Source: Eledone cirrhosa (taxonomy: Eukaryota). Taken from it: DNA of 64,000 bases. The DNA lies in NCBI GenBank assembly GCA_964016885.1, contig OZ024744.1, positions 88,908,001 to 88,972,000 of the forward strand. The letters run 5' to 3'. The notes beneath the pieces were generated by a model. The model saw only the letters and a list, made by a program, of their open reading frames with translations. It was not told the DNA's origin and made no database searches. Made by a program: the position numbers and the translations under genes. How positions within the stretch are numbered: position 1 is the stretch's first letter; the number at the start of each line of letters is the position of its first letter. Of this stretch, positions 27,972-64,000 are shown piece by piece.

Positions 27972-27976
<5 letters not shown>
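27886..27976 (+). mobile_element. Minimal family A insertion: pLTR tail plus ~12-nt inverted end
   Basis: tatacgatatta followed by aaacttgtcgagtgct...cttttgca, inside (TA)n. Confidence 0.75.
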
Positions 27977-28015
<39 letters not shown>

Positions 28016-28167
28016 TACACGGGTGTGTATGATTGTGTATAGAAGATTATATTAATAAAAGGAATTCCAATTTTGTCTGATTTACTCGTTTTATTTACAA
28101 TCTTTTAAAATTTATAATGGTACTAGAATGAAATAGTATGGTAGAATATTAAATATTAAGTGTTAAT

Positions 28168-28206
28168 TGAACAAGTACTTTCATGCTTTCGCAATCTTCA
28201 GGTTCA
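28168..28206 (-). ncRNA. Minimal type I hammerhead (same family as 1207-1245) in pLTR ~28049-28260
   Basis: tgaac-CTGAAGA-ttgcgaaagcat-GAAA-gtac-TT-gttca; palindromic AAGTACTT helix III. Confidence 0.82.
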
Positions 28207-28260
28207 TAATGTGTAGAGACAGTCAAGTTTGCAATTTTCAACTGTATATATATTTTCAAC

Positions 28261-28839: not shown

Positions 28840-29272
28840 ACCAAAGATTAATATGGTTCGTTGATTATTCAACGAATACAATTTTACAATAGATTAGAAG
28901 CACTCGACAGTAACAATTTTTCCTGGAGTATTTAATATTATTCAAAATATTAATAAATGAAAAATATTCTTATAATCAAAATATATATTTTATTATATAT
29001 ATTTCAAAGGTACAATGGTGGTTAAGTACGTTTTCATCAGCTAAAATATAAGATTTAATATACGACATACCGCTACGGTTTTGATTATTCAATTCCAATA
29101 GTGGCAGTATTGGAATTAAATAATCAAAACCGTAGCGGTATGTCGTATATCAAATCTTATATTTTATCTGATGAAAACGTACTTAAACACCATTGTACCT
29201 TTGAAATACGTATAATAAAATATATATTTTGGTTATGAGAATATTTCTCATTTAAAAATATTGTGAATAATA
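28840..29272. mobile_element. Fold-back pLTR pair (family C) with HHR at 29160-29222 (+) and its mirror at ~28986-29049 (-)
   Basis: Arms meet at a 7-nt loop (29101-29107); tail on the left arm; same family as the ends of 30901-35325. Confidence 0.85.
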
Positions 29273-29610
29273 TATATATGTATATATATATATATATATA
29301 TTTTACGCATATAAATTCATGATCAGAAAGTTACTACTCTTCTAAATAACATTTAAATATTTTAATATATTTGACACCTTGTTATTTTGGCCACCTATTT
29401 AATTAGATAAGTGATTTAAAATATATTTTGTTCTGGAATGATCTGTATGTTGATCGTTTTTTTTAATAAACGCTGATGATTCCTCTGGTCTGTGCTAACT
29501 AATAACAAGTTGTTCAATAAAATAACTTGCTATTAGAGGTACATTCCTTTGGGAAAAACAATTGTTTGTAATTAAATGTCTTAAACTTTTAATTTGGTTT
29601 TTGTAAGCAC

Positions 29611-29709
<99 letters not shown>

Positions 29710-29756
29710 ATAAGGGCGCTGCGGAGTTGCAAATGGGTTACATATGAAAAAAGTTT

Positions 29757-29825
29757 GTCCTTCATCAGTGATCTTCCAACCATCATAGGCATTTCATCGC
29801 TTTAAAGACCATATACCTCCGGTTG
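29757..29825 (-). ncRNA. Candidate non-circularly permuted hammerhead ribozyme (copy 1)
   Basis: aggta-TA-tggtcttt-aaagcgat-GAAA-tgcct-atgatggttg-gaagatca-CTGATGA-aggac; helix III aggta/tgcct, helix I tggtcttt/gaagatca; no conventional helix II. Confidence 0.55.
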
Positions 29826-30372
29826 GTGCGAGCAACGGCTAAAAAAAGACGTTGGGACACGTAAATAAAGGGGACGCGAGGGTAAACAAACAAAATGGTG
29901 AAGCAACAGAAAGTGAGGAAGAAAGAGACAAGTCCCAGATTTCTATGAATTTAAATTCGGTGAAATCGTGAACAAGAGAATAAAGACCATCAAACCTGGT
30001 TGAAATGTGAGCAAGGAAGGAATTTCGCACAGGTTTAACGGGAGGAAGAAGGGGTCTGGTCTGCGAATTCGGTAAACATAAGTTCTGTGAAATCGTAGAC
30101 GAGAGAGAGACAAAACTCATACCAGCTTGGCCAGCGTGCGGGAGAAAAGAATTACACACAGGTCAAACGGGAAGAAAGAGGAGGATGAGAGGTAGTGACA
30201 GAGAATGAGTGAGTGAAGGGTGAGGAAGAGGCTAACAGAGAGAGAGAGACTGCTAGAAAGGGTAAAGATACATAGAACGAAAAAGACATGTAGCAGCAGA
30301 GGAAAAAATATGTGTAAATATGAAAATAAGGGCGCTGCGGAGTTGCAAATGGGTTATATAGGAAAAAAGTTT

Positions 30373-30441
30373 GTCCTTCATCAGTGATCTTCCAACCATC
30401 ATAGGCATTTCCTCGCTTTAAAGACCATATACCTCCGGTTG
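30373..30441 (-). ncRNA. Candidate non-circularly permuted hammerhead ribozyme (copy 2)
   Basis: Same as copy 1 except gcgag before GAAA; agga/tcct hairpin after CTGATGA. Confidence 0.55.
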
Positions 30442-30522
30442 GTGCGAGCAACGGCTAAAAAAAGACGTTGGGACACTAAATAAAGGGGACGCGAGGGTAA
30501 ACAAACAAAATGGTGAAGCAAC

Positions 30523-30605
<83 letters not shown>

Positions 30606-31135: not shown

Positions 31136-33370
31136 ACTCATTCATAAGAAGACTGCGGTGGCGTGCTTTCCACTTTAAAAATAAAAAGAAAATGGATAAG
31201 AAAAAGACCAACAATAATTTTGATCACATCTTTAAATCTAGGAAAAAATCCTCCTTACAACAAACTCTTGGCTAATTTCGAAAACGAAATTATAAATATA
31301 TTAAGGAAAATCAAATTTAAAAAAATAACCCATATAGAGGCCAGGAATACCTTAGAGGTCTAAAGGAAAACATTAAGGACATGCAAAAAATAAATAAAAT
31401 ATTAGTGAAATCAGACAAAACGAACAACCTATATGGGATTGAAAGAACAAAATATAATGACTTAATTCTAAAAGAATTGAGGAAAAATTATAAAAAGGCC
31501 CCAAGTGAGGATTTATAGAATATTAATAATAATGCATTTGAAATTATCACCAATCTTGGAATAGAGCGGAAAACCGAACCCTTCATACCTAAGCAACCGC
31601 GGATGAATTTTAAAGACCATAAAAGAAATTTCGAGGAGGACCTGCCAGTTAGACTTATAGCACCTTCAAAATCAGATCTTGGAATAATTAGTAAAAATAT
31701 AATAGATAGGATTTTACCAACTCTTAAATTGAGGTCATGACTAAACCTATGGAAAGGCACTAGTGAAGTCATAGATTGGTTCAATAATATCAAAAATAAA
31801 AATAATTATAAGTTCATTCAAATGGACATAACGAGTTATTATTCCTCGATAACTCCTAATCTTTTAAATAAGGCGTTATCATATGCATATAAACATACGG
31901 ACTTATCTTGTGATGAGATAAATATTATATTAGCAGCAAGGCGAACTTTGATTGATTTTAATAATGATCTTTGGACTAGATCAGATAGACAGAAGAATTT
32001 TGATATTACTATGGGTTCGTCAGATTCGGCGGAAGTTACGGATCTTGTGGAAATTTTTATCCTCAACATGATAAATAGGAAACTGCCGGAGATTACCGGA
32101 GGTTTATATAGAGACGACATACTATTTATTGTAGAAAAACATAATAATAGTGAATTAAATAGAGTAAAGAAAGTAATTATAGAATTTTTTTAAAATTACG
32201 ACCTGTAGTTAGAAGTAGAAAATAATAACAAAATAGTTAATATTTTAGACGCGACTCTTAATTTGAACTCAGGCCTTTATTATCCTTTCCATAAACTCAA
32301 TGAGAATTTAAATTATGTTAGTTTGTATTCTAATCATTCAAAATAAGAATGCAATAGTCAACAGTGTACAACAACGAATAACCAGGCTATCTGCTAATAG
32401 ATCCATATTTAATAGTAAGGCTGTATATTATAATGAAGCGTTACATAAAGCTGGATATAACAATAATTGTTTCTACTATTGGCACAAGAATATTGAGTAT
32501 ATAGAAAAAATACTGAAAATAATATTAATTATAATCACACTAATCATAATAAAAATGAATATAAGAACAAATTCAGGAATAAATCGGGAAAAAAAATAAG
32601 AACTAGATCTATAATTTGGTATGCTCCCCCAACATGTTTAGCTATTAAAACACCGGTAGCACACTTATTTTTTAAAGCCCTGGATAAATGCTTCCCTAGG
32701 TCACATAAATATTACTCTATTTTCAATAGACACACAGTTAAACTTTCTTATTCAACAACTATGAATATTGCTCAAAATATAGCAAAAATAAATAGTAAAA
32801 ATCTTAATTTGAACCAACATATAATTAGCAATAATAACAATAATAATAACAATACATTAGTTAATGAGAATAACAATAATAATTTAAATATGAATAATAA
32901 TAGAACACCTGTAAACAATAATGTGAATAGTTTAAGGTCTGGAAATAACATTGAGAAGAAATGTAATTGTAGAAAGAAGTCCGAATGTCCTTTACAAAAT
33001 AATTGCCTTGACAAGAATATAGTATATAAATGTACCATTAAGGCAAATAATAATATATATAACTATATTGGTGCCACTTCATCTAAATTTAAGGAACGTT
33101 GGTACAATCATAGACAGTCTTTTATTAAACCAGATAAGAAATTTTCAACTTCACTTTAAAGGACAATAATACTAAATACTCCATCTTTTGGACCAAGTTA
33201 AAGAAAACCAATTCCTATCAGAACGCAACTATTTTGCAAAATTGTAACTTCGAGACTCTACAGATAATTACAAATTATGACAATTTAATCAAAACGAATT
33301 ATTCAGTAGTTGTCACCATAAAATTGCTAAAATGTTTGCAAGCATTGTAGAAGTTTCGAAAAAATATTGA
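31136..33370 (+). pseudogene. PLE RT + GIY-YIG polyprotein with stops and frameshifts
   Basis: SFIRRLRWRAFH; VKSDKTNNLY; DITSYYSSI; DITMGSSDSAEVTDLV; GLYRDD; IIWYAPP; CNCRKKSECPLQNNCLDKNIVYKC..YIGATSSKFKERWYNHRQSF. Confidence 0.9.
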
Positions 33371-34674
33371 TAATTAATAATTTAATATATTTATGCTTTT
33401 GCCTTATTGTGGTAATAATTTATTGATATTTATATGTATTAGAATTATTTCATTAAGAGTCTCGTTATCCTATGTTTTCATTAGGATAGTTCAATATTTA
33501 ATATTCAATATTTAACTACTTTTATGATATTTTCAATAGATGATTTATGGTTTTCAAAATATCGCGGAATGTGTGAGTAGAGATATGTTATAAATGTTTG
33601 TATATGGTGAATGAGTTATCTTCCTTGTGTTTACATTGTCCGTAAAAATGTCCTTTCTTTTTGACTAGCTTGCTGAATTATATTAGTTTTGAAATATGTA
33701 GACTAATAATATACAGACTATCATTAAAATGAAACTATATATCAAAATAAGTAAATACAGAAGTAAATATAACCTTTCATTAAATTAATGAAATTAAACT
33801 TTTGAGAGGAAATGTAACTGCAGTTTAATTTTAGAAATTAAATGAAAATTAAAGAATAGTGAAGATTTTATAAAGAGAATATCATAATTTAATAATTTTA
33901 GTAATATAGGATCTAAATATATTATATGTATTGATGCTGATTTATGTATGGTATTAGATTTTAATACATATGTAATAATCATTTAAATACACTTTAAAAA
34001 TTAATTCTTTAAAGTTATAACAAAATATTTATAGAATATCTTACCTTAAAATTAAAAATAATAATTTATAATGAGTTAAATTAAATTACATAAATTTTTA
34101 ATTAAACGATATATGTGATTGCTTTAGAAAATAATCTATACTGATTAATTTTGATATAATATATAAGTATAATTAGCTAATGCATAATCAAATACTAAAG
34201 ATATTTAATTGTTTAGTTGAATTGATTGGATGTCTTATTTGATCTAGCATTTGAAAACAACGGTTTTTTTCTCTATCCCCCTCTATTTGATGTTTCCTTT
34301 ATTTTTCTTTATTTTTCTTTACCCCCGTCCTTACACTTTCCATCTTTTGTCGTTATTCCTCTTTTCTTTTTTATATATTTCTTTTTCTCATCCATTCCTT
34401 TATCTATTTATGTATGTATTTATATATGTATTTATTTATTTTTTCTTGCTTTTCCTCCTATTTACACTATCTCTCATATCTCTAATTTGCTCTACGTCAT
34501 TTTCTTCTTTAAGTTTATCATTTATTTGTGGTATATAAACATTGAGATTTGATGAAATAAATCACTGCCAATACTGGAATTGTATAATCAAGACCGTAGC
34601 GGTATGTCATATATCAAATCATATATTTTATCTGATGAAGATATTCTGAAAAAAAAAAAAAAATTCCTTTGAAA

Positions 34675-35162
34675 TCTTAACTATAATAAAGGAAGGTCTG
34701 CGGGATTGGGTCCAGAATATATTTTTTACCCCGTTTGTAAAATAAGTTGGATTTCTTTGAATAAATAATGAATGAATATTACATAATTTATGTGCTAAAT
34801 TTCGTGGCTGTTGATTAAATATATTTTATAGCTTATTTAAAGATCTTTAAAATTCAATTCTTTAAAATTATCAAATTTCAACACTTCCTGTTAGCGGCCT
34901 TTATATTATAACACTTATAATCGCATATATTTCAGTCGCTAATTTTCTCCTAATGCAGTTTATATATAATGTCGTCTTTTTTTTAATATATCATGATTAC
35001 AGAAGAGAGTGTAACATAGGCTTTGTTCAATTTCTGTGTATATTGTCAATTACGATTTTATTTGATGTATCATATTTACATGCATATATATTTGTGTATA
35101 ATATCAATATACACACTACACATGGTAGAAGAAAACCACCCATAGGGTGGTTTTTGTGCTAG
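34675..35162 (+). mobile_element. Non-autonomous Helitron (488 bp)
   Basis: a|TC start; subterminal hairpin aaaaccaccc-ata-gggtggtttt; CTAG|t end; no TSD; removing it restores the pLTR. Confidence 0.88.
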
Positions 35163-35339
35163 TATATATAATAAAGCATATATTTTGATTATGTGAATAT
35201 CTTTCATTTGTTAATATTTTGAATAATATTAAAAACTCCAGGAAAACTTCTTAGTTGAGTGCTTTTAATCTATTGTAAAATTGTATTCATTGAGTAATCA
35301 ACGAACCATATTAATCTTTGGTTATATATATATATATAT

Positions 35340-35777
35340 TTGGATTTAATGCTCTGAAATAGCGATATATATGTGAAGACAAACATAGAATATTCGAAAA
35401 TATTCTGTATGTTTATAATAAACATTTTGAAGACCTAATCGCTATAGAATAGAATACGTCACGTATTACAATTTGAGATTCTCGATAAAAGCAAGGGAAG
35501 TAACCTACGCGTTTCATTCTTATTAGAAATCATCAGGATTACATATCCAATGCTTTTATCGAGAATGACACAGCTAGAGACTTATAGAATACTTAGCTGT
35601 GTACATGAACTGGTTTGAAAGAGCAGTAGTCGGTCCGGCAGAAATTAGAATTTGGATTTAATGCTCTGAAATAGCGATATATATGTGAAGACAAACATAG
35701 AATATTCGAAAATATTCTGTATGTTTATAATAAACATTTTGAAGACCTAATCGCTATTTCGAATATTCTATGTTTGT
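35340..35777 (-). mobile_element. Small non-coding partial tandem (312-bp period) with hammerhead and terminal inversion
   Basis: 35340-35445 repeated at 35652-35757; inverted piece ttcgaatattctatgtttgt at the right end. Confidence 0.75.
35500..35542 (-). ncRNA. Minimal type I hammerhead ribozyme
   Basis: gtaatc-CTGATGA-t-ttc-taataa-gaa-t-GAAA-cgcg-TA-ggttac; GUA site; palindromic helix III. Confidence 0.85.
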
Positions 35778-37526: not shown

Positions 37527-38505
37527 CTACCAGCAGGACCCGGCGTTGCACGGGGTAAGAAATGTGAAATTGCAACACGCACATGCAAAGGTTGAGGAAT
37601 GTAGCTGTGTACATTTTGAATTCCCTTATTCTCAGGGAACAATTGTTCATCTACTGGAACAGTAGAACACCAGCAGACCCGAATCGTAAAACATCTGTAT
37701 GCATGTGCAAAATTTGAAGAAAATCAGCTGGATACTCTTTAAGCGTACTAAATCTTAGAGTATGATTTTTCTTCCATTTGGAGAAAATCGGTTAGGTACT
37801 TTTCGAGTTTTGTAGAAAGCGGTCACCACGGAATTAGCACAACCGCTGTTCGACGTACTTGCGCAGGGTGTAGGTGCAACAAAGGGGTCTTAGTAGAAGT
37901 AGCACAGACGTGAGTTTTACGGTGTCAATAACACCTCAACGTACACAGGGCCCGGATTTGCGCGTGATGAAAGCACGAAGCGTCAACAGGGCGCCGACAA
38001 AATTGTTAAGGTCCTTCTCATTTCCTCAATCCCCCGAAAATGATCCTGCTTAAAAGTAAATAAGTGCTGTGTCCTCTGTTAAATAAATCAAATTTTTAAC
38101 GAAATATTATACGCTACTTACGATGTTTAAGTAGTGTTTATATTGAAAATGAAAATGGCATGTAATGCCCAATGCTAATACGTAAATTTCCTAGAAACCA
38201 TTAATGGAATCGGAATTTTATTTTTGTCCACAGCAATGCGAGGGGACTAACTAATGTCTGCTGCACATTTCGAGGAAATCCGCTGGATTATCTTTAAGTT
38301 AAGCATAAAAAAATCCTAAAAATGCCTTTGAAATGTGGTTTTCCGCCTAATGCGGGCCCTAGGGCAAACAAGTTAAAAATTAGCCCATTGCACTTCCAGA
38401 AATATAAGTAATGCATGTGTAAAGTTTGAAAAGAATCGGTCGGGTACTTCTCGAGTTAGGGATTTACACAGACAGACAGACAGACATCCTTTGTTTTATA
38501 TATAT
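37527..38505 (-). mobile_element. Non-autonomous Helitron-like element
   Basis: Minus strand begins tatataaaacaaaggatgtctgtctgtctg and ends with hairpin cccg-tgcaacgc-cggg then ctgg/tag, next to (TA)n. Confidence 0.7.
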
Positions 38506-38511
38506 ATATAT

Positions 38512-39880
38512 CTATGTCTTCCATATTGCTGTAGATTCTAATGTGTTTATTATCGGGGCTAACTTTTCTACGGATCGCATTGTACAGTATTTTGGTCACT
38601 ACATCATGCCTCATAGGTAGATAGTACCGCGATGACATCTTTGGACAGCTGCTGATGACATGGGTGACATCTTCGATGTTAATTCTACAGAGTCTGCACT
38701 TGTTGTCCCATCTAGGTGTTTTGCCTGCATCTCTATCTCTTTTGTGAATCAGGTATTTCGTGATGATTTCTTGTTCTTGGATTGCAAAAGCGTATCCTTC
38801 AAAGTGGGAGCCAATATAGCGGTTGTTGGTCCAAGATAGACTACTTTCTTTATGTATATTACTCTCACTCTGGAGCGTCTGGCAACATATCCATGCATGA
38901 CTTTTTGCTCATAAGCATGCAATTTTTCTACCCATGTATTCACTGCGGTACTGCTGGGCAATTTCCCTGGGTGTGAGTTTTTGATTGTCACGTAGGGAAT
39001 ATCTTTCAAGGAGTTCCTTCCCAACTCTCATGATCTTATCTGTCTCATGCAGATAGACTTGCTCGAGAGACGGGCTCCTACGCTTCGAGGTTCGTAGATG
39101 TTGTCGGAGGGATATGATGTGACATTCAAATGCTGTCTGGACTGATGTTAGGCCTCTGCCTCCCTGCTTACGATTCAAGTAGAGGCGGTCTATGTCACCT
39201 TTGATGTGGAAGTTTCCGGTGTTGTTTAGTATTTTTCGAGTTCTAACATCAATTGCTTGGATTTCGTCTATCGTCCAATTGAGTGCTCCAAATTTTGGTG
39301 TTAGGACAGGCACAACAAACACATTGTGAGCCACTGTTTTGTTGTGCGCAGAGAGTTCCGATGGCCATATTTTTCTTAATCGGGTGTAGTATTCCCTCGT
39401 TACGCGTTCCTTGTTACAGATACCATGATAGGTTATGTTCTTATCTATCCCCAGGTATCTGTAGCAGTCCTCATCAGATATCGGTGAAACAGTTAGGCCA
39501 TTGATGAACATGTTGTTAGATTCGGTTGTAGTTTTCCCCGCTTTACAGTCATGAAGGAGCATTTATCTTGGCCAAACTCCATTCCTATATCCTTTGAGAA
39601 TGTTGTAACCAGGTCAAGATTTTTCTTCATCCCATCTATGTTCTTCGCATAGAGTTTCAGATCATCCACAAAGAAATTATGGGTTAAGTTCCTATTTCTG
39701 TCTCACAGAGAGACTGTCTTCCTGAAATATACCCCTGTGATATTCTATTTTATCAGTGAAAATTGAGTCCCCCGTCTGTGTTTTTAAATTTAGGATAGTA
39801 GCCCAAGAAGAAGACAGTTTCTCTATGGTTCTGATAATAATGTCTGGGACTTTACTAAGTCGGAGGCCCTCTATCATCCA
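38512..39880 (-). pseudogene. Non-LTR retrotransposon of the RLE type (R4/Dong/NeSL-like): RT and Zn-knuckle fragment
   Basis: RGIFQEDSLS, HNFFVDDLKLYAKN, YRYLGI, DIDRLYLNRKQGGRGL, MHGY, AIQEQ, CRLC..EDVTHVISSCP..RHD; frameshifted. Confidence 0.88.
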
Positions 39881-40527: not shown

Positions 40528-41107
<580 letters not shown>

Positions 41108-55945: not shown

Positions 55946-58554
55946 TATATTATGAGGAGTTTTTATTTATCTTTTGTTTTTACTAATAATGGTTTCTTAT
56001 ATAGGCACAAGGCCTTGGCGAGGAGGGGAAAGTCGATTAAATCGACCCCAGTGCGTAACCGGTACTTTATTTTATCGACTCTCTACCGATACTGCGAATA
56101 ATGCTGACTATTCAAAAAGAATATTAAAATATATAAATGTGTTGTGGATTAATTTAATAGATTTAACCAGCAGTATACTTTTCCTCTTTAGCTATTCAAG
56201 TATTCATAAAGTATTCATAAAGTAAACAGACTCATACTATCATTATCTATTCAATCGACCATTCTTGACATTTCATTTAACAATCACTCGTTAACTATTT
56301 ATTATCGTACATAAATCGCCTATCATTATCGTATCATAGTTAAAATATTTTAACATTTAGAGTATACGAGTATTGTTATTGGGCTTCCTTTGAGGTATGT
56401 TTAAGTATCTAGCTTAAGAGTTACTATTTTGGCATATGACACGAAGTGATCCATATATCATTATGAACATTCTCAATATCAAAGTGGCTTTCTTTAGGGA
56501 AGTGCAGCAGTTCAAGCCGTATTGCACATTTTCACGCCAAAGTAATCTATTTTGATAAAGTAGAAACATTTTTGTGAAGTTGGCCTGAGAGGTTAACAGA
56601 GGTTGATATGTAAAGAACTGATTCTAGAATTATATATTATAGTACGTGGGTTATCATATGAATCAAACTAGCTGACCGTTAATTTATATCATTTATTTCA
56701 TAGAAAATTTAATCGTCAATCTCCTGAGTTTTCCTGTTATTCTTAGAATCGTGAGCTAGAATAAACTTGCGGGTATGTATGTATTTGTGTGCATAATATA
56801 TAAATCACTTATTGTATGTTTGATCTCATATTTGTTATGGACTGACGGAACCTAAACACACGTGTACACCAAAATATATACTCTTTATATGTGTTTATTA
56901 TGAAAAGTATGAGAAATCAAATTTATATATGTCTGTGTGTGAGTGTGTGAGTTTAAGAGAATTGGATATTCATGTCTTTTATATAGTTGTATATGCATAT
57001 AGAAATATAAATTTATACATTCTTATATATTATTTTATATGTTTTTTCAGATTAAATGTCAGAACCAAATGCGCATCACGAAGAAGACTTTAACACCTAG
57101 AGAGAGGCTTTTCTTTACACAATCAGGCATTTCTTAGAGAAACTGGCCTAGAAAATCTGTTTATGCTCACAGAAATGGAAAACTTCCCCGACAAAAATAT
57201 TCACGCAAATCAAAACATTTCATTCTCTTTCCGAGCCACTCACTACCTCACTCACCACCTCCGTCTCTGCTTTTTTTTATATTTTCCTTATTTATTTTTC
57301 TTTCTTTCTTTTTTATCATTCTTTCGTTTTCTTTTTCTTTCATATAAATCCAAAATACACAAATAAACACATTCTGTACAGGCGTAAAGTCTACATATCA
57401 CGAAGATCAGATATTTTCAACGTCGCAGTTCTACAATACTGTATAAATACTATGGAATTCGATGAATGGACAAAATGCTTCTGATAAAATTGTTTTGATC
57501 CATGCATGCATGGAGTTAAAACCCACAGAACGGAAGCGCGATGTATTTTCGGTTCTGGACAGAAAAATACAGTTGAAAGAGTGAAGAAGTGGAAGGGAGG
57601 TGTGAGAGTCGAATAAGACGAGATGAAATAAGAAGACTAGTGTAAAGCGGGTGGGCTTTGCCCATGCGTAAAGAACATGAGAGTGTATGTGAAAATATAA
57701 TGGAACATGGATGAAGGGAAATAATGAAAAGTCATACAAACAGGATCTGACAGGCTTTGCTGATAAGTTGCACCAGATACAGAAAACTAGAGTGTTAAAA
57801 TGAATTTCATCAGCCAGATATGCAGATCTTAAGTACTTAGAGCGTGATATTCTATACCACTGTTTAACGACCAGTGTATTCCTCGTCTCATAATGACACA
57901 TCGTCAGCAATATTTATCTCATCCGATGTCAATGATGCATGCGGCAATAGGTTCAAAAATGGCTGACACTTTAGAGTGTCAAAACAGTTTCAAAATGGCC
58001 GATTCAAGCTGATGTCATAGCGATTCAAAATAGCAGCTGTTACAGGTCAGTGTAGCGAATCATTGTGTTCATGTTATAATGTGGATTATATACCAAGTAG
58101 CTGGATAACTGTGTGAATTAATGTTATTAAAGCTATTTGGTTTGTTCTTTCCGTTTGGAAGATTTTCTAATCCGTTTATTTTCGGGCATTTTTAATTTAT
58201 TCTTTTTTCTTCTTTTATATTATTCCTTTTCCCGACTTTATTGTTTTTCACAAAATATTTACTCTAGCATAAAAGTATTTGCACTCTCCTGTTAATTTAT
58301 CGGGGTTATTTTTTTCATTTATCATTGATACCCTAATGTAAATTAGATTTTAAATGCGATAGAATAATTTTCAAGCTACATACTATAAATTAGATTGCTT
58401 AATTAAATATTTTAAATAACATTTTGCCTAGTAATTGGAATTACATAAGTACATATATGATAATATTTGATTTGTTTTTAAACAGAATACCTTATTCCGC
58501 ATGCCTCACTTCACCTATATGTGAATACTGCTTATTATATTACATATGACGTAG

Positions 58555-58740
58555 GTGAATTGGCAGTATCGGTAGAGGGTCGGACACTATGCTTTCCAGC
58601 ATAGTTACGTCCCTTTACGGTCTGAGTTCAAATCCCGTCGAGGTAAACTTTACCTTTCATCCTTACGGGGTCGATAAAATAAAGTACCAGTAATGCACTG
58701 GGTAATTGCTGGCCTAGTGCCAAAAGTAGAAACAATTATA
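58555..58740 (+). mobile_element. OK-like SINE (short variant)
   Basis: Family consensus. Confidence 0.85.
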
Positions 58741-59213: not shown

Positions 59214-59511
59214 CACACTCACACACACACATACACACACACACACACACAGACACACACACACGTACCAATCAGTATAGAAACAAATAAATATGTATAT
59301 AAGTATGTATACGTACATACATATATGTATACAGACGTACAGTAGTATGTATATATATATATACATACATGCACACATATATATATATGTACGTATGGAT
59401 TCACCGAACATTTATTATAATGCTCGGTGTGTTTGTAAACAAACATCCCGAATTAAGTCGTACAGTGTCTAGCAACCATCGTTGCTCATTTGTTCAACAC
59501 TGACAAAGGAA

Positions 59512-59552
59512 CGCTGTACTAGTTTCAAGCTTATTAGCTATCGTCAGCAACG
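59512..59552 (-). ncRNA. Minimal type I hammerhead (array copy 1)
   Basis: cgttg-CTGACGA-t-agct-aata-agct-t-GAAA-ctag-TA-cagcg; GUA site; palindromic ACTAGT helix III. Confidence 0.88.
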
Positions 59553-59940
59553 TATACCTTCCTGCCATATGGTTGAGCGTCTGAAAGTATATACTCTCCT
59601 TATGCATATTAACGGCTGAGCAGTCCAATTTGCATATTGAGTGAGTTAATCGGCCGGAGCACCGAAAACTATAAACGGAAAAAGTGAAACGAAATTTCAT
59701 TTCTCACTCTTAGTACGGCTGTTACTTAAATATAAGTATGTACACGTACATACATATATGTATACAGACGTACAGTAGTATGTATATATATATACATACA
59801 TGCACACATATATATATGTACGTATGGATTCACCGAACATTTATTATAATGCTCGGTGTGTTTGTAAACAAACATCCCGAATTAAGCCGTACAGTGTCTA
59901 GCAACCATCGTTGCTCATTTGTTCAACACTGACAAAGGAA

Positions 59941-59981
59941 CGCTGTACTAGTTTCAAGCTTATTAGCTATCGTCAGCAACG
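59941..59981 (-). ncRNA. Minimal type I hammerhead (array copy 2)
   Basis: Identical to copy 1. Confidence 0.88.
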
Positions 59982-60362
59982 TATACTTTCCTGCCAGATG
60001 GTTGAACGTCTGAAAGTATATACTTTCTTTATGCATATTAACGGCTGAGCAGCCCAATTTGCATATCGAGTGAGTTCAGTCGGCCGGGGTACCTAAAACG
60101 ATAAACGGAAAAAGTGAAACGAAATTTCATTTCTCACTCTTAGTACGGCTGTTACTTAAATATAAGTATGTATACGTCCATACATATATGTATACATACG
60201 TACAGTAGTATGTATATATATATACATACATATATATATGTACGTATGGATTCACCGAACATTTATTATAATGCTCGGTGTGTTTGTAAACAAACATCCC
60301 GAATTAAGCCATACAGTGTCTAGCAACCATCGTTGCTCATTTGTTCAACACTGACAAAGGAA

Positions 60363-60403
60363 CGCTGTACTAGTTTCAAGCTTATTAGCTATCGTCAGCA
60401 ACG
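60363..60403 (-). ncRNA. Minimal type I hammerhead (array copy 3)
   Basis: Identical to copy 1. Confidence 0.88.
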
Positions 60404-60769
60404 TATACTTTCCTGCCAGATGGTTGAACGTCTGAAAGTATATACTTTCTTTATGCATATTAACGGCTGAGCAGCCCAATTTGCATATCGAGTGAGTTAA
60501 TCGGCCGGGGTACCTAAAACGATAAACGGAAAAAGTGAAACGAAATTTCATTTCTCACTCTTAGTACGGCTGTTACTTAAATATAAGTATGTATACGTAC
60601 ATACATATATGTATACAGACGTACAGTAGTATGTATATATATATACATATATATGTATATGTACGTATGGATTCACCGAACATTTATTATAATGCTTGGT
60701 GTGTTTGTAAACAAACATCCCGGCTGATTAACTCACTCGATATGCAAAAAAAACTTTGTATCTCATATA

Positions 60770-61305
60770 ATAATTGTTTCTGCTTTTGGCACAAGGACAG
60801 CAATTATCCCAGTGCATTACTGGTACTTTATTTTATCGACCCCCTAAGGATGAAAGGCAAAGTTAACCTCTGCGGGATTTGAACTCAGACTGTAAAGCGA
60901 TGTAACTCTATGCTGGAAAGCATGCCGTCCGACCCTCTACCGATACTGCCAATTCACATAATAATTGTTTCTACTTTTGGCACAAGGCCAGCAATAACCC
61001 AGTACATTATTGGTACTTTATTTTATCGACCCCGTAAGGATGAAAAGCAAAGTTAACCTCGGCGGGATTTGAACTCAGAATAATAATGCTTTCTTATATA
61101 GGCACAAGGCCATCAATTTTGGGGGAGGAGAAAGTCGATTAAATCGACCCCAGTGCGTGACTGGTACTTTATTTTATCGATCCCGTAAGGATAAAAGACA
61201 AAGTTAACTTCGGCGGGATTTGAACTCAGATCATAAAGGGCCGTAACTCTAATTTGCAAAGTATGGCGTCCGATACTTTATACCGATACTGCCAATCCAC
61301 CGCCC
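60770..61305 (-). mobile_element. Three head-to-tail OK-like SINEs
   Basis: Copies at ~60770-60957, ~60960-61080 (truncated) and ~61085-61305. Confidence 0.85.
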
Positions 61306-61578
61306 TCTAAGAAACAAACATTAAAATATTTAGCCATATTCTAAGAAAGAACATAACTAGTTAGGGAATTACAAGTACAATCTATTAATGGAAAGTAAAA
61401 TTATGTAAAACATTCCAAAAATGTTGCATCTATTAACTTTGAACATGGCTGTGACTGTGGCTCCTGAGACCAGATTTGCTCAAGCAAACATACATACATA
61501 CATACATACATGCATACATACATACATACATACATACATACATACATACATACATACATACATACATACATACATACA

Positions 61579-61686
61579 TGGTGGCTGCCAACTCGTTTTC
61601 GAGTACGGCCACTACTTTACATCCATGTAGGAGAACCCCTACCGATGCGCTACATACATACATACATACATACATACATACATACA

Positions 61687-61717
<31 letters not shown>

Positions 61718-61788
61718 GGTGGCTGCCAACTCGTTTTCGAGCACGGCCACTACTTTATATCCATGTAGGGGAACCCCTACCGATACGC
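61579..61788. repeat. ~71-bp direct duplication interleaved with (TACA)n
   Basis: tggtggctgccaactcgttttcgag...cctaccgat at 61579 and 61717. Confidence 0.85.
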
Positions 61789-61970
61789 TGAACGAGTGTG
61801 ACTTTTTAGTCCAGCCAGCGACTTGAAAACTCTGGTACAAACACTACACTGGTGACAATTATTATGGCTGCAAACTCTGCTAAGAATATTGCAATCGCTT
61901 GTCAGATTATAGAAAATGGTGCACCTTTAGGCTACGGCCAGCCATACGAACCTGTAACAGATCGTGAACA

Positions 61971-63220
61971 AGCAATGCCTGTGCTTTGAAGGTTTTTTTA
62001 AGTGGGGAAAGGCCTTGCACTCGACCAATCCCACTCTCTGAGCATCGAAATCACTACTCGAAAACGAGAACTGGTCAACATTGTCGGATGCTTCCGAAGC
62101 CGCAGTTTGTTTTTCAGAGTTTCTCTCTCGAAGAAAGGTGTTGTGACAACAACTGGGGGCCTCTCACTCCAAGGTGAAAAAGAAAGTACTATTTGGATGG
62201 TCGCTGACTCTGCTGAGTTCCTCCGCCATTTGCCCGGTCTTGTATTTCATACCGCAAGGTGTCCAAATATTACCCTCTTCCTCAATCAAGCTTGGTGGGG
62301 TTACCGGTTTAATAACCGACGACCCGACCATGAGACAGGTGCTACTGGGTTATATGTTACCAGTAGCACTCGAGAGCGACCTGACATAATACATACATAC
62401 ATACGTACAAACATACATACATGCATACATACATACATACATACATACATACATACATACATACATACATACATACATACATACATACATACATACATAC
62501 ATACATACATACATACATACATACATACATACATGATGACTGCCCCATCGTTATCGAGAATGGCCATTGCACGTTATACCATTATTAATAATTATTAATA
62601 ATTCTATCGTGCAATGCCTGTGCATGAATTTTAAAGTGAGCAAAGACTGTGCACTGAGCCAATCCCATTCTCTGAGCGACAGTAGCTATAACCCAAAAAG
62701 AAGAAAAGATCAACATCATCGGTAACTACTGAGCCGCAGGTTTTATGTCGGAGTTATCCCAGTTTCCTGGGTTGCCTTCTCCTAGAAGAATGCCCTGATA
62801 AAGGCTAGGGGTCCTTCACTCCCAGTGGTTTAACCGCACGATCGGGTGTCCAGCCCGACTATTTTTATGTCCCCGCGCATATACATACATATGCACCCAT
62901 TTATATACACATATACATACATATTTACATGTGTATATACATATTTACACACGTTTGGATGGCTGTTGACTCTTATGAGTTCTTCCGCCCTTTGTCAGGT
63001 TTTCTTTTTGTCCTGCAGGGTGTCCAAATCACCCTCCTCACCAAGTAAACTTGATGGGGTTGCTGGTTTAGTCGCCGATAACCCGACCATGCGACAGGTT
63101 GTACTGGGTTACATGTTACCAGTAGCACTCAAGAGTGACCTGACATAACATACATACATACATACATACATACATACATACATACATACATACATACATA
63201 CATACATACATACATACGTA
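61971..63220 (+). mobile_element. Two diverged copies of an unclassified retroposon-like element ending in a stem-loop and (TACA)n
   Basis: 61971-62390 vs 62611-63148; 3' hairpin gtgctactgg-gttatatgtta-ccagtagcac, then gacctgacataa and (acat)n. Confidence 0.6.
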
Positions 63221-64000
63221 CATACAATCCGTACCTACAAATGCATGCATGCAGACATGCATACATATCTACCTAGTTAATGTTGTGTAAATTCAAATGA
63301 GAGAGTCTTGTAACTATGTTAGAAACCGACTCTCTCTTTATTGGCAAAAATTTGTGAAATTATAAAACCAGAAGAACATACATATATACATACATACATC
63401 ATATGTATGTAATTATGTTTGTTTCTCTACCACATCAGATTCTTGTGTAACAAAATTTATTTTTCTGAAGATTCATATAGTTATACATTTAGTAAATCAT
63501 GATTGAAAAGGTAAATCGGTAGTTTAAGATGAAGCTAGTGATATTTGGAGAGTTAACCCTCATCGGCCTGAAATGCAGCAGAGCCTGGGTTGGTCTCATA
63601 CTGCACTAGGTTGCCGCTGGAGAAAGTGTCACTGCATGTGGCATCTCAGATGAGAGGTTTACCATAGCGGAACGGGACGATAGTCATGCCGTCTAGCCTT
63701 TTGCCGTCCCCTGGGTCCTGTCCCGCCAGCTCTAACTGGGAGGGGAATACTGAAGCATCCAAGCCTTGCTTTTAGTTTGATTTTCTGCTTTAGGCTTGTT
63801 TCTCGTAAGAGTCCGGTGTTAATCAGTAAGCATACTGGGGTACCAGTTGCCCTGGTAACGCATTACCATAGTAAGAATATCCCATGAAAGCACTCGCTAT
63901 CTTCATCGTTTACAGCACACATGTTTTTCCAGAAAACGTTCCCAGTGAGAGATCAAGAATTTAGCTCTCTCCGGGCTTATAATTTCGTCCAAACATCGCT

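Follow-up and report, generated by a model that had tools for sequence, protein, structure and literature searches.

A 64-kb window of cephalopod DNA (positions below are those of this whole stretch) contains a short tandem array, array A, with a hammerhead ribozyme motif in each of three units. Is array A the insertion of a retrozyme, which would pass through self-cleaved RNA circles, or is it another kind of repeat that has come to carry hammerheads? Animal non-LTR retrozymes are defined as tandem non-coding units of 150–450 bp with low GC content and a canonical type I hammerhead in each (PMC7229834), and an operational rule asks for two or more units in a row with a complete hammerhead (10.64898/2026.07.22.740005); here and below, papers are cited for the parts of them that were accessible. 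A TSD, when present in such elements, is longer than 4 bp.

TRF placed array A at 59297–60722, with a period of 422, 3.3 copies and 96% matches, which bears out the claim of an earlier sequence-only reading that about 3.3 tandem non-coding units lie here. The array consists of a 355-nt 5′ partial unit, two monomers of 422 nt (m2) and 429 nt (m1), measured from cut to cut, and a 220-nt 3′ partial unit that runs out in TA-rich DNA, and this tandem form shows no LTR–internal–LTR layout. The longest ATG frame in circularised m2 has 56 amino acids, and unit A is thus non-coding. The parts of the array are as follows:

59297..60722, minus strand: array A, 3.3 head-to-tail non-coding units (TRF and alignment)
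59946..60367, minus strand: monomer m2, 422 nt, GC 36.5%
59517..59945, minus strand: monomer m1, 429 nt, GC 37.1%
59741..59825, minus strand: TA-rich self-complementary tract of unit A (shown for m1), which carries the m1/m2 indel
60362..60404, minus strand: type I hammerhead, copy 1, H17 at 60368
59940..59982, minus strand: type I hammerhead, copy 2, H17 at 59946
59511..59553, minus strand: type I hammerhead, copy 3, H17 at 59517

The three identical hammerheads that had been reported with spacings of 429 and 422 nt were found as exact repeats of a 43-nt motif at 59511, 59940 and 60362, and the core is intact in all three units. Read on the minus strand, the motif runs helix I, CUGACGA, U-AGCU-AAUA-AGCU-U, GAAA, C-UA-G-UA, the cut and helix I again. 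Helix I has 6 bp and loop 1 is UAU; helix II is a four-pair helix with U.U at its base, closed by a 6-nt loop 2, UAAUAA. Helix III is the palindrome ACUAGU, as the sequence-only reading had stated, with 2 bp and a 2-nt palindromic loop, and the triplet is GUA, which is natural and active in hammerheads (PMC1636495). When the UAU/U internal loop and the next pair are counted, copy 3 spans 59509–59557. The earlier length of 41 nt describes this motif with a helix I of 5 bp; as mapped here, it has 43 nt and 6 bp. Cuts are predicted after 59517, 59946 and 60368, and H17 maps to plus-strand position 59517, in agreement with the cut proposed between 59517 and 59516 on the minus strand.

Judged by its sequence, the ribozyme architecture is canonical type I and not the 'minimal' form of PLEs (Penelope-like elements). 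The premise that retrozymes carry minimal hammerheads finds no support as worded, as the literature ascribes canonical type I hammerheads to them and the 'minimal' ones to PLE pLTRs. Nor is the identity of the three copies special, as it had seemed: the identical run around the cut extends over 97 nt, and 85 of the 422 windows of 43 nt in unit A have no variable column, so identity of the ribozyme across copies is no evidence of selection.

We asked whether a chance resemblance to a hammerhead within an ordinary tandem duplication could account for these motifs. Rfam at its gathering score returned no match in the whole window. A narrow E-value search aligned Hammerhead_HH9 (RF02275) to array A over model positions 1–77 of 77 with 19.7 bits and an E value of 0.0063, below the gathering score of 52. 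An E-value search of 1.7 kb returned 119 matches below threshold, most of them to miRNA models and lying on the TA tract; we rejected these as compositional. The low HH9 score and the lack of any hammerhead among those 119 matches favour a chance origin. Shuffling speaks against it: a strict descriptor (helix I of at least 6 bp, helix II of at least 4 bp and a palindromic helix III) found 4 matches in the window and none in any of 100 block-wise dinucleotide shuffles, and a loose descriptor found 17 matches compared with a shuffle mean of 0.03.

A weak blastn match of unit A at 35536–35511 revealed a second hammerhead unit, element B, which was therefore found through similarity of core and loop sequence and not through the helix rule:

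35338..35757, minus strand: element B, a 312-nt unit in 1.35 copies with its 3′ end in (TA)n
35500..35542, minus strand: element B hammerhead, H17 at 35506, helix III palindrome ACGCGU
35757..35777, plus strand: 5′ inverted segment of element B, unit positions 107–127

The ends of element B share a 108-nt redundancy with 100% identity, and its hammerhead is flanked by a long extension of helix I. This hammerhead aligns to that of array A without gaps and keeps the core, the UAU loop 1, the U.U, the UAAUAA loop and the GUA triplet. All 13 of 13 pairs are kept between the two ribozymes, through eight two-sided changes and one one-sided change, compared with 28–44% paired in slid controls; the covariation comes from two independent sequences only. 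Both hammerheads align to HH9 over its full length, their loop 1 containing UA and their loop 2 measuring 6 nt, and element B scores 20.6 bits (gathering score 52). Because both hammerheads score below the Rfam thresholds, standard annotation misses them. The pattern common to A and B occurred in 0 of 100 shuffles, and an exact search of bacterial and archaeal genomes gave 0 matches. The shuffles and the helix covariation between A and B effectively refute chance resemblance, which we now consider exceedingly improbable.

Outside the ribozyme, A and B show no significant similarity; they are therefore separate families that share one scaffold, and they lie 24 kb apart. A covariance model built from the two found no further full copy in the window, and its next matches were a related dispersed motif at 1204–1247 and 28168–28206.

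The sequence-only reading had also proposed that cleavage requires a dimer. This is plausible for a helix III of 2 bp with a 2-nt palindromic loop: in the structural model, such a loop cannot close helix III within one copy, and two copies must pair their palindromes. The ACUAGU self-duplex was computed at −4.8 kcal/mol. According to nearest-neighbour folding, which ignores Mg2+ and loop–loop or tertiary contacts, the double hammerhead with swapped strands lies about 6.6 kcal/mol higher than two single folds in each of the two two-copy constructs and 5.1 kcal/mol higher than single folds in the whole of array A, with a helix III pairing probability of about 0. Since folding disfavours the dimer, the ribozyme activity of array A may be weak. 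In the axolotl, HHR_Amex2, which has a U.U at the base of helix II, cleaved to 22% in monomer form and far more efficiently in dimer form (PMC7229834), and one of nine predicted Xenopus retrozyme dimers cleaved in vitro (10.64898/2026.07.22.740005).

The monomers fold well as predicted circles, with minimum free energies of −128.1 kcal/mol for m2 (z −6.8) and −134.9 kcal/mol for m1 (z −7.5; 60 shuffles each). These circles are 66–68% paired, with helices I and II forming freely, and they remain stabler than shuffles when the TA tract is left out (z −4.8 and −5.7). The reverse complements of the units are also stable, with z between −4.2 and −5.6, so stability does not pick the strand.

To understand how the array came to lie here, we examined its ends. 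Its 5′ end carries an inversion:

60720..60748, plus strand: 5′ inverted segment of array A, 29 nt, unit positions 289–317

The inversion had been described as 28 nt long; it is present, with a length of 29 nt, and 28 of the 29 positions are identical to the array, the best of 1000 random complex 29-mers having reached 22/29. It joins the direct part through a 3-nt microhomology at 60720–60722. The inverted segment of element B is identical at 21 of 21 positions, and random 21-mers reached at most 15. No flush TSD was found at array A, where the longest word common to the flanks is 5 nt, and none at element B.

The divergence among the units bears on a second explanation, that a real but dead or weak ribozyme sits in a minisatellite that grew locally from a single old insertion by duplication, unequal crossing-over and conversion and makes no circles today. 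As claimed earlier, the units differ by scattered substitutions and indels: m1 and m2 are separated by 16 substitutions and 9 gap columns (421 aligned positions). Most unit pairs are 1–2% apart (2/216, 4/208 and 6/355), and m1, whose 3′ third diverges more than the remainder, differs from the 5′ partial unit at 15/355 positions. Eleven of these 15 substitutions crowd into 113 nt (scan p ~0.015, with a width picked post hoc), which counts against one round of copying from a single circle. A single pass round one circle would leave the divergence even, and the observed pattern therefore calls for a template of mixed sequence, for conversion from another locus or for local duplication in stages; array A was probably copied from something other than one homogeneous circle, or part of it was probably converted later. 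Seven of the 16 m1/m2 substitutions break predicted pairs, 3 keep them and 6 fall at unpaired positions; no change is compensatory, a pattern that drift after insertion would leave. An imprint of A-to-I editing was also considered and found unsupported (A/G versus C/T transitions 10:4, p 0.18).

Local growth of a minisatellite, a form of the local-amplification model discussed in 10.64898/2026.07.22.740005, would agree with the uneven divergence, with the structure-breaking changes (7/16 between m1 and m2), with the disfavoured dimer fold and with the result that neither blastn nor the covariance model found a second copy of unit A in the 64-kb window. However, local duplication alone leaves the 5′ inversion and its microhomology unexplained, as well as the occurrence of inversions in two unrelated elements, and the catalytic core is intact in three copies, most unit pairs being only 1–2% apart. 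We therefore regard a local minisatellite as quite unlikely.

The ends of both elements point instead to PLEs. PLE insertions comprise partial tandems with an inverted 5′-truncated copy, a 30–40-nt tail and a (TA)n bias (10.1101/2021.04.23.441226). Array A and element B both have a 5′ inversion and a TA-rich 3′ end, which in B is (TA)n, and these features lend new local support to the PLE mobilisation that the sequence-only reading had suggested. Compared with the usual tail, the 41-nt offset of the element B inversion from the 3′ end fits, and the offset of array A (−101 nt) does not: the outer end of its inversion (unit position 317) lies 101 nt beyond the 3′ end of the array (216). If the template was a circle, priming could have begun at any two points, and the offset of array A would then fit.

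Three PLE endonuclease fragments lie in the window, one of them Neptune-like and two Hydra-like. Pfam named 2 of the 8 ORF fragments, both as RVT_1, so the assignment to PLE clades rests on published motifs. Hammerhead-like motifs lie 456–1478 nt downstream of each of the three endonuclease fragments. The Neptune-like RT has 106 homologues; of the five that carry a species name, four come from Octopus vulgaris, and these show the top local identities (70% over 94 amino acids and 67% over 64 amino acids), which makes an octopod host likely. Two further homologue searches yielded 7 and 8 proteins, all lacking a species label. In O. vulgaris, 31 PLE families have been active recently, and the accessible part of that report (PMC13282606) does not mention ribozymes.

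These fragments raise a third possibility, that unit A is the pLTR or 3′ end of a PLE and that the array is a 5′-truncated partial-tandem insertion, or a later local amplification, with no circle cycle of its own. It draws on the habit of PLE insertions to form partial tandems with an inverted 5′-truncated copy and to target (TA)n, and the 1.35 units, the inversion and the 41-nt offset of element B fit it well. Moreover, the retrozymes of Xenopus have kinship with pLTRs: 24 of 57 families match Repbase transposable elements, and 21 of 22 of those elements are PLEs (10.64898/2026.07.22.740005). The local comparison is less favourable: the PLE-associated hammerheads of the window have a long helix II or different cores, whereas those of A and B are compact and canonical; neither unit A nor unit B resembles the downstream DNA of any of the three PLE endonuclease fragments; and no RT-like frame of at least 90 codons adjoins array A. 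We consider a PLE end unlikely.

Other repeats of the window were recorded as observations in their own right:

6218-8067, minus strand: broken Neptune-like PLE body, RT followed by endonuclease, with a 3′ hammerhead motif
31741-34685, plus strand: broken Hydra-like PLE body, RT followed by endonuclease, with a 3′ hammerhead motif
13862-15765 and 16192-18096: 1.9-kb inverted repeat, 99.9% identical, within which lie a GIY-YIG fragment of Hydra-like type and two hammerhead motifs, one at 13969 (minus strand) and one at 17989 (plus strand); read as a young inverted PLE insertion
21469-22234, minus strand: two-copy tandem that lies between TA tracts, with a period of 482 and 93% identity over 284 nt; a larger hammerhead-like motif with a long or branched helix II, helix III ACC-GCGU-GGU and the triplet GUA occurs in each copy (cores at 22108 and 21626)
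1192-1432 (plus strand) and 27975-28221 (minus strand): dispersed repeat of about 240 nt, 87% identical, which sits between microsatellites; its compact hammerhead-like motif also shows U.U where helix II begins and terminates in CUU, similar to the one found at 6218, downstream of the Neptune-like PLE
22715-23010, 28935-29273 and 40530-41105: short palindromic insertions with TA-rich ends and two long-helix-II hammerhead motifs placed head to head on opposite strands, a form typical of inverted 5′-truncated PLE ends
29692-29910 and 30308-30525: direct repeat with a period of 616, 97% identical over 219 nt, between TA tracts, with CUGAUGA but without a following GAAA; possibly a decayed or different motif
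38456-39562 and 9513-10139, both minus strand: other non-LTR retrotransposon ORF fragments, of which 9513-10139 matches RVT_1
58552-58739, 60763-61300 and many other sites: abundant SINE-like repeat of about 150–200 nt, which flanks array A on both sides, the right-hand copy beginning 15 nt past the array A inversion, and which may resemble octopus SINEs
61515-61789 and 62192-63275: repeats with periods of about 136 and 760 nt and (CATA)n tails like LINE/SINE 3′ ends

Array A itself shows, in each unit, an intact type I core of canonical architecture; its units are tandem, non-coding and of retrozyme size, with a GC content of 36.5–37.1% (limit <45–50%); the predicted circle is self-paired with a free hammerhead; and PLE RT and endonuclease fragments, assigned by motif, lie in the window. 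The earlier identification as an animal non-LTR retrozyme thus agrees with the sequence-level definition in units, hammerheads, GC and size. Counting against it are that no second unit A was found in the window, that no TSD was found and that the dimer fold is disfavoured, together with the structure-breaking and clustered substitutions, the offset of the array A inversion and the rarity of cleavage among the Xenopus dimers. On balance, we estimate a probability of roughly 70% that array A arose when a non-autonomous non-LTR retrozyme inserted here. The insertion was probably made by PLE machinery.

How might such a retrozyme be transcribed? Each unit contains an octamer:

60057..60064, minus strand: octamer ATGCAAAT, one per unit (also at 59628-59635 and 60479-60486), a candidate promoter element

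Octamers belong to snRNA promoters, and unit A may carry its own snRNA-type promoter. The octamer, which was spotted post hoc, lies about 110 nt upstream of the cut; only one further octamer occurs in the window, and element B has none. In its RNA sense, unit A also contains T5 and T4 runs, which would argue against Pol III read-through; because of these runs, transcription by Pol II or read-through from a host transcript is favoured.

These features suggest the following course of events. A minus-strand transcript, probably made by Pol II or by host read-through, would read through at least two units of array A. Two neighbouring hammerheads would exchange their helix I strands, their ACUAGU palindromes would pair to form helix III, and each would then cut after GUA to release monomers of 422 and 429 nt, which a host RtcB-type ligase could close into rod-like circles. 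The RT and GIY-YIG endonuclease of a PLE would nick TA- or A-rich DNA and copy the RNA beyond the length of one unit; the short 5′ inversion would come from a template switch or from priming a second time.

If array A is such an insertion, what would it mean? The papers on animal retrozymes only propose PLEs as the partner, on the basis of shared hammerheads, co-occurrence and pLTR phylogeny (PMC7229834; 10.64898/2026.07.22.740005, in their accessible parts). Two unrelated hammerhead units within 64 kb that both have a 5′ inversion and a TA-rich end offer an insertion signature that can be counted, which makes the proposed partnership testable genome-wide. The exact 108-nt redundancy of element B is what one pass round a 312-nt circle would leave. 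Tentatively, it is possible that several retrozyme families here share a dimer-only canonical scaffold (U.U, UAAUAA and GUA) and that their insertions bear a PLE fingerprint of copies longer than one unit, exact redundancy, a 5′ inversion primed elsewhere on the circle and TA targets. If true, the shared scaffold and this fingerprint would be direct genomic evidence that PLE RTs copy RNA circles by rolling target-primed reverse transcription. Our search of an incomplete literature collection found no report of a cephalopod hammerhead or retrozyme and none of retrozyme 5′ inversions.

Among known systems, the minimal hammerheads of PLE pLTRs resemble that of array A in being type I, in their palindromic 15.2–16.2 region and in insertions with inverted 5′ copies, and they are dimer-dependent (PMC4209133). 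They have a helix II of 7–8 bp, a helix I of 4–5 bp and a poorly defined loop 1 (PMC4209133), whereas in A and B helix I measures 6 bp, helix II has four pairs, loop 1 is a conserved UAU and no ORF is linked to them. Array A thus departs from the PLE minimal type in helix lengths, in loop 1, in lacking an adjacent RT and GIY-YIG ORF and in showing no similarity to the PLE 3′ regions of the window. Newt satellite 2 (PMC2220036) and Dolichopoda pDo500 (PMC2837043) are likewise tandem, with satellite-like units and a hammerhead that functions as a double. Newt satellite 2 is equipped with an internal Pol II promoter of the snRNA type (PMC2220036), for which unit A offers an octamer; array A is short compared with these satellites, and its octamer is a candidate promoter only. 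Rfam Hammerhead_HH9 (RF02275) has the same core and the same loop 1 and loop 2 geometry as A and B, with all 77 positions aligned; by comparison, A and B lack the helix III loop, have U.U in place of G10.1–C11.1 and score below the gathering score of 52.

Animal non-LTR retrozymes co-occur with PLEs and have a self-paired predicted circle with a free ribozyme, as in array A (PMC7229834). At 422–429 nt, the unit stands at the top of their size range, in which the Mytilus retrozyme, a mollusc example, measures about 350–390 bp (PMC7229834). The invertebrate retrozymes tested in that study cleave as monomers, whereas helix III of array A is dimer-type; no TSD was found at array A, and it has a 5′ inversion, a feature of retrozymes that goes unmentioned in the accessible part of PMC7229834. 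The axolotl HHR_Amex2 of Rtz_353, a 350-bp unit with about 60,000 copies, is like array A in its U.U at the base of helix II and its 2-bp helix III, although its helix III is capped by a tetraloop rather than a 2-nt loop (PMC7229834). Rtz_353 cleaves better as a dimer (PMC7229834), as may also be the case for array A, whose helix III is dimer-type by its sequence. The class of element is thus already known, and array A is apparently an undescribed cephalopod example of it, with an unusual dimer-type ribozyme.
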